Assembly (NCBI GenBank): GCA_017450205.1
Contig: JAFSVF010000024.1
Coordinates: forward strand, 7,996 to 71,995
DNA length: 64,000 nt
Source of the DNA: Bacilli bacterium
GTDB lineage: Bacteria; Bacillota_I; Bacilli_A; RF39; UBA660
Reading direction: 5' to 3'
Every line of letters begins with the position of its first letter. Position 1 is the first letter of the stretch. The notes under the pieces were generated by a model that was not told the origin of the DNA, did not search any database, and was given only the letters and a program-made list of their open reading frames with translations. Positions 1,862 to 2,380 of the stretch are shown here, piece after piece. Both the position numbers and the translations under genes were made by a program.

Positions 1862-2380
1862 CTATTTTATACTCTCAACTGAAGCAAGTGTTTTAGATTG
1901 ATTTTCTTTTACCATATCTCTTGCTTGTTCATAAGTACTACATAATAATTCTAAAGCTTCGATTGTATTATGAACTTTACCATCCATACTAGTTAGTTTT
2001 GATGTATATACAGCACAATCATCACCAACCCATGAATTATTAAGAATAGAAACATTGCGTTTTGTTTCGCCGTCCCATGAGCTCTTAATCTTAGAGATAG
2101 ATTGTCTTAAGTCTTGAATTATTCTTTCTAATTGATCATAAGTTATATCTAAATCCAAGTGCACTATTTGAACACCATAAGCAGGTTGAATTGAAACACC
2201 ACCAGCACCAGGCATTTGTGGCGGATATATAGTCCCAGTAGAACCTGTTGGTGGAACAGCTACTCCATATTTTGGTTGAATATGAACTGGAACAACTCCA
2301 TATTTTGGTTGTGCTTGAACAACTGAACCAATATTTACAGATGTTATTTTTGCACTATTTATATAAGTACCTGTTTTCAT
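1862..2380 (-). CDS. WXG100-like protein with N-terminal QPKYGV repeat region
   Basis: 172 aa. The N-terminal half carries QPKYGV, QPKYGV and QPAYGV plus a Pro/Gly-rich linker. The C-terminal ~95 aa is helical with two W-x-G motifs (SSWDGE, NSWVGDDCAVY). AGGAGAG SD upstream. Confidence 0.6.
   Translation of the reverse strand: MKTGTYINSAKITSVNIGSVVQAQPKYGVVPVHIQPKYGVAVPPTGSTGTIYPPQMPGAGGVSIQPAYGVQIVHLDLDITYDQLERIIQDLRQSISKIKSSWDGETKRNVSILNNSWVGDDCAVYTSKLTSMDGKVHNTIEALELLCSTYEQARDMVKENQSKTLASVESIK
2171..2311 (-). repeat. in-frame peptide repeat QPKYGV x2 + QPAYGV
   Basis: CAACCAAAATATGGAGT occurs twice exactly and CAACCTGCTTATGGTGT once on the minus strand (aa 24-70 of the 172-aa protein). 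Confidence 0.85.

Follow-up and report, generated by a model that had tools for sequence, protein, structure and literature searches.

Tyr-Gly repeats on a WXG100-like carrier protein as candidate targets of an adjacent radical SAM/SPASM enzyme in uncultured Bacilli

What might a radical S-adenosylmethionine (rSAM) enzyme do to a neighbouring protein that repeats one short motif three times? The question is raised by a 64,000-nucleotide stretch of DNA (the window; contig JAFSVF010000024.1 of assembly GCA_017450205.1, positions 7,996 to 71,995 of the forward strand) from an uncultured rumen bacterium of the Bacilli, in which an rSAM/SPASM gene (2424..3785) lies directly upstream of the gene for a 172-residue protein, on the same strand and separated from it by 43 nt. 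Both genes belong to a cassette with three others that encode small helical proteins, here called h113, h82 and h114 (Table 1). An earlier, sequence-only reading had noted the run QPKYGV-QPKYGV-QPAYGV in the 172-residue protein and proposed that the enzyme installs Lys/Tyr-centred crosslinks in it. In this study, we sought to determine whether the repeats are under selection, whether they follow the enzyme from locus to locus, and which chemistry fits them best. Conservation, gene linkage and recurrence of the motif together make it very probable that the 172-residue protein is the substrate of the adjacent enzyme.

The repeats are where they had been placed. The span 2171-2311, the sequence of the protein, the positions of the three copies and the 17-nt string common to copies 1 and 2 (ACTCCATATTTTGGTTG on the plus strand) are all exact, and the statement that the protein is encoded downstream of the rSAM gene holds on the minus strand, its gene lying at lower numbers in window coordinates. 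Over 26 nt the three copies align at 100/85/69%, and an exact repeated 6-mer arose in only 13 of 20,000 shuffles of the protein. The AlphaFold2 (AF2) model predicts residues 1-73 to be disordered (predicted local distance difference test, pLDDT, <50), followed by a hairpin of two helices, 81-114 and 120-171 (pLDDT 82-91). This C-terminal domain, a helix-turn-helix of about 95 residues with W-x-G at the turn, resembles WXG100/ESAT-6 proteins (EsxA/EsxB); in a Foldseek comparison with the PDB, the first 31 places are taken without exception by WXG100 proteins of the EsxA/EsxB type (TMt 0.75-0.89, E 0.04-0.6), whereas by sequence the domain scores below the family cut-offs (PF06013, 18.1 bits, E 0.003, cut-off 27.3; TIGR03930, 22.1 bits, E 1e-4, cut-off 44.85). 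That the core stands at the N-terminus and the WXG-like domain at the C-terminus, in a protein lacking a leader peptide, is unusual and real, and this order is kept across the family.

A homologue search covering 5.8 billion proteins returned 59 homologues of the 172-residue protein, every one of them from an uncultured member of the Bacilli in a rumen or gut metagenome. When all Y[G/A] sites ahead of the WXG-like domain are counted, these homologues hold 238 sites, one to seven per full-length protein, with the consensus [VI]-Q-P-[K/A]-Y-G-V. The Tyr is invariant (100%) and is followed by Gly (92%) or Ala (8%) and, at position +2, by Val (85%); it is preceded by Lys (47%, 111/238) or Ala (39%, 94/238) at -1, Pro (74%) at -2, Gln (78%) at -3 and mainly Val or Ile at -4. 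Single-site members carry SLYGVSP or ALYAPP. The N-terminal region varies in length with the same motif throughout, and the motif positions are much more constrained than the spacers between them. Conservation in orthologues was the check that had been proposed for the repeats, and because the motif is conserved, the reality of the observation is settled. In the C-terminal domain, W102, S116, W117, C122, Y125 and C147 are among the residues invariant in the homologue alignment, and the turn residue G119 is at least 90% conserved.

The substrate family is rare. A family-profile search of the class was positive in one of 399 genomes, solely the window's own, and among 1.84 billion representative proteins a profile search picked out no more than 175 relatives; those used here were taken from metagenome proteins and contigs. 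Of the listed relatives, 136 contain the WXG-like domain, and nearly all of these have it at the extreme C-terminus behind 0-400 residues, which in the closer relatives hold X-Y-[G/A] motifs and in the distant ones other repeats. Because the domain stays C-terminal behind such variable N-terminal regions, we read the hairpin as a carrier module, with the Tyr-Gly region as one kind of cargo. The repeat is also found on other scaffolds: P0252, P0314 and P0315 (210-370 aa) have 7-14 copies of [VIA]QP[AKL]YGV and no WXG-like domain, and P0252 has a hydrophobic stretch followed by a basic tail at its end.

The enzyme itself has more than 1,000 relatives at E ≤ 1e-10. Most are about 365 aa long, about 60% identical to it, and lack the N-terminal extension that it carries; the long forms make up one clade in the tree (support 0.93). 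Directly downstream of four short-form enzymes, which are about 59% identical, lies a protein unrelated to the 172-residue one that has the same kind of motif. These are a 938-aa protein in locus L016 (PQIVYGIP, PQFVYGIP, PYEVYGIP and PQKVYGIP), a 703-aa protein in genome G154 (three PxxVYG[IV]P motifs), a 157-aa protein in genome G125 (VLYGPP) and, on contig C26 of the window's own genome, a 219-aa protein (PQFVYGIP, PVEVYGIP and PQKVYGIP). In L037, L038 and L039, which hold basal and sister members of the long-form clade, genes for a WXG-like substrate and an h114-like protein come next after each enzyme gene; the substrates read AMYAAI and, twice, VSLYAAP in L037, ALYAPP in L038 and SLYGVSP in L039. 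What is constant across about ten independent contexts is the Tyr and the small residue after it. Because the motif recurs beside paralogous enzymes on unrelated proteins, we regard this as strong evidence, drawn from sequence comparison, that Tyr-Gly is what the enzyme sees. In this respect the sequence-only reading, which had singled out the repeats as a candidate target of the neighbouring rSAM/SPASM enzyme, is supported by conservation, linkage and recurrence alike.

The C26 locus deserves separate description. It lies outside the window (G000:C26:28400-31500; locus L027 7399-10470) and encodes a second rSAM/SPASM paralogue of 366 aa, 59% identical and with no N-terminal extension, preceded by a 433-aa VirD4/TraG-like P-loop protein and followed by the 219-aa protein with three PxxVYGIP motifs, which has a C-terminal '...FPxNWNE...' domain. 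Trios of this type are also present in G154 and in L016, the latter with an ADP-ribosylglycohydrolase and with its 938-aa protein belonging to DUF6508. The trio gives the impression of a further, mobile-element-linked system for Tyr-Gly modification.

To which known family does the enzyme belong? Pfam recognizes Radical_SAM (6e-24) and SPASM (9e-8) domains, C128, C132 and C135 are invariant, as are seven C-terminal Cys (338/357/375/415/418/424/442), which makes the rSAM and SPASM Cys sets complete, and the AF2 model is of high confidence (pLDDT 91.6, predicted template modelling score 0.87; extension pLDDT 88-96). Foldseek places SkfB, anSME, SuiB and PqqE, enzymes that modify peptides or proteins, at the top of the matches to the enzyme core, and a PDB sequence search returned BlsE, SkfB, MoaA, anSME and PqqE only, with no splicease structure among them. 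The best NCBIfam match is TIGR04133, aligned over the full length to the model at 315.4 bits, below the cut-off of 425; it is also the best-scoring family for all sampled clade members, which reach 297-321 bits and stay under the same cut-off. TIGR04133 is an NCBIfam hypothetical equivalog, an rSAM/SPASM protein of a lipoprotein system with TIGR04134 as its partner; to our knowledge the function of the family has never been tested, and a literature search found nothing for TIGR04133 or DUF6508. The present system differs from it in that the scores fall below 425 and in that the partner protein begins with MKTGTYINSAKITSVNIGSVVQ, without a hydrophobic signal or lipobox and with no Cys before residue 122; the NCBIfam scan of the window proteins gave no match to TIGR04134. 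Among characterised peptide maturases the MftC family scores best (134 bits), followed by TIGR04103, the PlpX family (IPR026482), at 117.8 bits against a cut-off of 725, which places the enzyme outside that family. PlpX itself reaches 677 bits on TIGR04103 and scores TIGR04133 above all other maturases of RiPPs (peptides made by the ribosome and modified after translation) except its own relatives. A role in defence was considered and set aside, PADLOC having given just generic viperin-like rSAM matches (E 1e-23) and no defence-system assignment.

The substrate motif points to tyramine excision. Spliceases excise tyramine at XYG, with a loss of about 135.06 Da (-135.06 Da; PMC11414181, PMC11626197, PMC9811515). 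The two splice sites of PcpA are QAMYGAV and VQPMYGVV, that of PlpA2 is AAMYGVV and that of PlpA1 is RPLYGLP (supplement of PMC9484694). The validated PcpA site VQPMYGVV and the family consensus VQP[K/A]YGVV are identical at seven of eight positions, differing solely at the free X. Because the Tyr is invariant, the +1 residue is Gly or Ala, the -1 residue is free and the site is nearly identical to that of PcpA, splicease-type excision at X-Tyr-Gly is the chemistry we favour; by analogy we judge it the best reading, with somewhat better than even chances. The chemistry is inferred from the substrate motif because the enzyme is no PlpX orthologue.

Spliceotide systems (Morinaka 2018 and Scott 2022, as cited in PMC11414181, PMC11626197, PMC9811515 and PMC10849128) comprise PlpX/PcpX, which are of type I and have a Y protein, and the type II enzymes RhaX/RcsX/RasX, their precursors carrying XYG; both whole-protein splicing and leader-independent action are documented. 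Like these, the present system has an rSAM/SPASM enzyme beside its substrate and an X-Tyr-Gly target, often several, in a nearly identical site context. Splicease activity requires a helix, supplied by the Y protein or the leader, that binds the enzyme, and the helical extension fused to the present enzyme is a possible counterpart; its hairpin may, by analogy, play the part of the activator helix. Pfam and NCBIfam scans found no match to PqqD or to the RiPP recognition element as a helical activator. Unlike spliceotide systems, the cassette has no Nif11/NHLP leader, no PqqD-like Y protein and no gene for a protease or an exporter; its substrate has the core at the N-terminus and a folded WXG100-like domain, putatively for recognition or export, at the C-terminus, with three small helical partners; and the enzyme lies outside TIGR04103, some lineages have Y-A, and the chemistry is a prediction. 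The mining of YG-rich neighbours of rSAM/SPASM enzymes in 189 genera by Scott et al. 2022, as described in PMC10849128, may already have included the present clade among its splicease 'types'.

One possible alternative is another Tyr-centred reaction on the same enzyme-substrate pair, such as a three-residue cyclophane (Tyr ring to the +2 C-beta), an MftC-like Val-Tyr modification, or C-beta hydroxylation or epimerisation. Y-G-V formally fits the triceptide pattern omega1-X2-X3, with a beta-branched Val or Ile at +2 in some 85% of the sites; MftC, whose target is a ...GVY end, represents the best-scoring characterised family, at 134 bits against 118 for that of PlpX; and the lack of orthology to PlpX and the Y-A variants can be counted on the same side. 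The wider family, however, varies at +2 (V, A, P, T, H, R, N, S) and holds constant the Tyr and a small +1 residue, which is the logic of XYG and not that of a fixed partner for a crosslink; the site shares seven of eight residues with a validated splice site, and no triceptide (XyeB-type) family is found among the best 25 NCBIfam matches. Triceptide and streptide systems resemble the present one in that rSAM/SPASM enzymes act on short, repeated aromatic motifs, and differ from it in that constancy is here confined to the Tyr and the small +1 residue, with Lys dispensable and +2 variable; neither group of enzymes is among the best matches. We consider such a reaction possible but on the unlikely side.

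A second alternative is that the repeats are not modified at all and form a flexible Pro/Tyr/Gly-rich linker or a binding motif of a type VII secretion system (T7SS) protein, with the rSAM enzyme acting on a Cys of the hairpin, on h82 or on a small molecule. In its support, relatives that share the C-domain can have quite different N-terminal regions without Tyr-Gly (many of P0221-P0320, for example, and a 480-aa protein encoded in L014), none of the rSAM-linked substrates seen lacks the conserved Cys122, and one rSAM sub-clade lacks a Tyr-Gly neighbour. Set against this, Tyr-Gly recurs beside paralogous rSAM enzymes on carriers with neither a WXG-like domain nor a common Cys, a single Cys cannot pair with up to seven repeats, and the motif positions are under far stronger constraint than the spacers; we give this alternative little credence. 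Cys122 was likewise rejected as the main rSAM target, being present also in relatives without Tyr-Gly and standing alone against as many as seven repeats. The weakest proposal is the streptide-like Lys-Tyr side-chain crosslink within each K-Y-G-V repeat, with its loss of 2 Da per repeat, favoured in the sequence-only reading: Lys precedes Tyr in two of the three window repeats and 47% of family sites, and Lys-Trp enzymes of the WgkB and SuiB type are SPASM relatives (NF050035, E 1e-33; SuiB among the fold matches), yet the Lys is Ala in 39% of the 238 sites, including window repeat 3, gives way to L, V, M or S in the PxxVYGIP systems and the sister lineages, and has no other conserved nucleophilic or aromatic residue in the repeat to replace it as a partner, so that hardly any weight is left to it.

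If tyramine excision at X-Tyr-Gly is the reaction, what are the other genes of the cassette for? From the DUF362 gene through h114, the genes are spaced by 1, 8, -1, 43 and 12 nt, which indicates, from gene layout, that the cassette genes in the window form one operon; a promoter and terminator scan of this AT-rich DNA found such sites no more often than in shuffled sequence. The order h113, h82, rSAM, substrate, h114 recurs in every locus with sufficient flanking sequence (the window, L001/L012, L003/L004, L011 and L013; rearranged in L014), with identities across cassettes of 68-84% for the rSAM enzymes and 40-62% for the substrates. The h113 gene was found in L001, L003, L011-L014 and L039. 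Outside the five genes the neighbours vary among loci, the L003 cassette for example lying between gap and pgk. DUF362 and a YegS kinase flank the cassette only in the window's close relatives, and DUF362 adjoins it in L001/L011/L012 and not in L003, L013, L014 or L037-L039; it is probably co-transcribed with the cassette in the window lineage and outside the conserved core. Because the genes beyond them differ among loci, the five genes are, on comparative grounds, taken as the unit.

Table 1. Features of the cassette and its surroundings in window coordinates (aa, residues; ORF, open reading frame).
Feature	Position	Strand	Basis
DUF362 gene, 1 nt upstream of h113	4385..5263	-	Pfam DUF362 7e-51
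h113, 113-aa all-helical protein, first gene of the conserved cassette	4042..4383	-	ORF
h82, 82-aa helical protein; stop overlaps the rSAM start codon	3785..4033	-	ORF
rSAM enzyme, N-terminal helical extension of ~113 residues: hairpin H2-35/H43-76 and helix H88-113	3447..3785	-	AF2
rSAM enzyme, Radical SAM core (C128-x3-C132-x2-C135) and SPASM with seven invariant Cys	2424..3446	-	
172-aa putative substrate gene (rep172)	1862..2380	-	ORF
Disordered N-terminal 'core', residues 1-75, without Asp, Glu or Cys; Lys at 2, 11, 26 and 37	2156..2380	-	AF2 pLDDT <50, residues 1-73
Repeat 1, Q24-P-K-Y27-G-V29 (residues 24-29), candidate splice site K26-Y27-G28	2294..2311	-	
Repeat 2, Q35-P-K-Y38-G-V40 (residues 35-40), candidate splice site K37-Y38-G39	2261..2278	-	
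Repeat 3, Q65-P-A-Y68-G-V70 (residues 65-70), candidate splice site A67-Y68-G69	2171..2188	-	
C-terminal WXG100-like helix-turn-helix, residues 76-172, W117-V118-G119 at the turn, Cys122 and Cys147 conserved	1862..2155	-	
h114, 114-aa helical protein, after the substrate gene in every cassette including minimal three-gene ones	1505..1849	-	

The small helical proteins are related among themselves and to the substrate. Profile comparison makes h113 and h114 paralogues (hhalign probability 99.6%, E 1e-24) and does the same for h82 and the substrate C-domain (probability 88%, E 3e-6), a blastp comparison of rep172 residues 85-162 with h82 homologues giving E 1e-4. That the small partner h82 is paralogous to the hairpin suggests a heterodimer of the EsxA/EsxB kind. 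Weak, sub-threshold matches of the h113/h114 family are to YwqH-like proteins (3/14), WXG100 (2/14), EspC and PDB HP0062. These faint YwqH-like, WXG100 and EspC-like signals of the small helical neighbours are a likeness to WXG100-type T7SS substrates and to LXG toxins with Lap helpers; unlike in those toxins, the hairpin here is C-terminal with the 'cargo' ahead of it, the reverse order. The N-terminal extension of the enzyme was tried as a homologue of these hairpins and rejected, with E 0.005 (probability 7.5%) against h82, 0.033 against the substrate hairpin and 0.19 against h113/h114 in hhalign; it resembles a WXG-like hairpin in size and shape only, and we claim no homology. It is missing from the relatives of about 365 aa, and sister enzymes without it are still paired with WXG-like substrates. 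As a separate observation, a Cys stands five residues past the turn Trp in both the substrate (SWVGDDC, window 1862-2155) and h82 (SWNDTIC, window 3785-4033); it is kept in the substrate family, the window h82 and sister-clade substrates, and is not strictly tied to Tyr-Gly.

Locus L014 is rearranged, with an rSAM-substrate-h114 group and a separate trio (9486-11622) in which h82-like and h113-like genes flank the gene for the 480-aa protein. This protein ends in the same WXG-like domain, without the Cys, and its N-terminal part consists of repeats of about 65 aa (...KPPLKSGRNDGYIQDD[LV][KR]AEA[KR]RQTELDK[TA]AG...). It is evidence that the hairpin serves as a general carrier of variable cargo.

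The resemblance to WXG100 proteins raises the question of secretion. The window's genome encodes an EssC of a type VIIb secretion system (T7SSb; G000:C13:78276-82181, 910 bits on TIGR03928), and EssC scores above the TIGR03928 cut-off in all six cassette-bearing genomes (the window's and five others) versus 20 of 60 genomes from the same family. The co-occurrence is suggestive support for a link between the cassette and the T7SS. A 1555-aa gene upstream of the L001 cassette was examined as a possible EssC and discarded, no FtsK domain being present in the 1025 residues that fall within the locus.

We propose the following mechanism. Within the disordered N-terminal region, the enzyme would attack every [VI]-Q-P-[K/A]-Y-G-V site at its Tyr, cutting tyramine from the backbone at K26-Y27-G28, K37-Y38-G39 and A67-Y68-G69 and leaving a reactive keto-amide at each, with a predicted shift of -135.07 Da per site and -405.2 Da for the three. 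The C-terminal WXG100-like hairpin would take the place of a leader peptide. It would probably serve as a handle for the enzyme, whose own N-terminal hairpin is of the same size, and for the partners h82, h113 and h114, and probably also as the export module for the type VIIb secretion system of the genome; export of the substrate by the T7SS is plausible, and we consider the case evenly balanced. What is secreted would then carry several keto-amides as electrophilic warheads and might, for instance, inhibit Ser or Cys proteases. The complete sequence of a T7SS substrate armed before export, by hairpin-hairpin recruitment, conversion of X-Tyr-Gly to keto-amide, handover to h82 and the Lap-like h113/h114, and export by EssC, is a speculative extension that we think unlikely to hold in every step.

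Several observations weigh against parts of this interpretation. The enzyme is only 27% identical to PlpX over 290 aa (BLASTP) and reaches only 118 bits on TIGR04103, PlpX is a distant outgroup in the tree, and the chemistry is transferred from the substrate motif and not from orthology. Some lineages have Y-A in place of Y-G (YAAP, YAPP, YATR). The P0136 rSAM sub-clade (L019-L021) has no Tyr-Gly neighbour within 5 kb and may have a different substrate. As to secretion, the link to the T7SS is one of co-occurrence among six genomes that are related, one of them nearly identical to the window's, and by sequence the WXG100 match stays under the threshold. In L038 and L039, sister enzymes that lack the hairpin extension have WXG-like substrates too, and the extension would therefore seem dispensable for recognition. 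The P0136 enzymes themselves are 385-390 aa long with a faint CARF-like signal; downstream of their genes lie a 67-aa ORF, acidic and helical, and a DUF488 gene.

The type of reaction that we favour is known; the enzyme clade, the substrate architecture, the helical partners and the link to secretion are new. If the chemistry is confirmed, folded proteins of the secretion type, made by Bacilli of the gut and rumen, would join the leader-dependent cyanobacterial and proteobacterial peptides as targets of tyramine splicing, and the reaction on them would be carried out by a distinct and very large clade whose scanned members lie just under the TIGR04133 cut-off. That clade would gain a substrate rule for annotation, an invariant Tyr followed by a small residue, and radical SAM protein editing would be tied to type VII secretion. 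We know of no T7SS substrate described with a dedicated rSAM modification enzyme, and a literature search joining 'radical SAM' and 'WXG100' found nothing relevant; an armed T7SS substrate, if true, would be the first case of a dedicated radical SAM modification of a type VII substrate and would represent a new mode of substrate recognition. Keto-amides inhibit Ser and Cys proteases, and for this reason a secreted protein with several such warheads would represent a novel type of effector in a habitat rich in proteases. Set in a core that lacks Asp, Glu and Cys, the compact site could also be of use to protein engineers as a splice tag.

The T7SSb locus of the window's genome lies outside the window (G000:C13:77600-87380; L031 9611-19383) and has further features of its own. 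It encodes the EssC of 1542 aa and a YukD-like protein of 86 aa, and from there onward runs into alternating genes for helical proteins of 103/104 aa and 132/133 aa on both strands. Two proteins of the locus, of 453 aa and at least 189 aa, share a 133-aa N-terminus (MNEVAYYDK...). The gene array is likely an LXG-like effector array that continues into the end of the contig.

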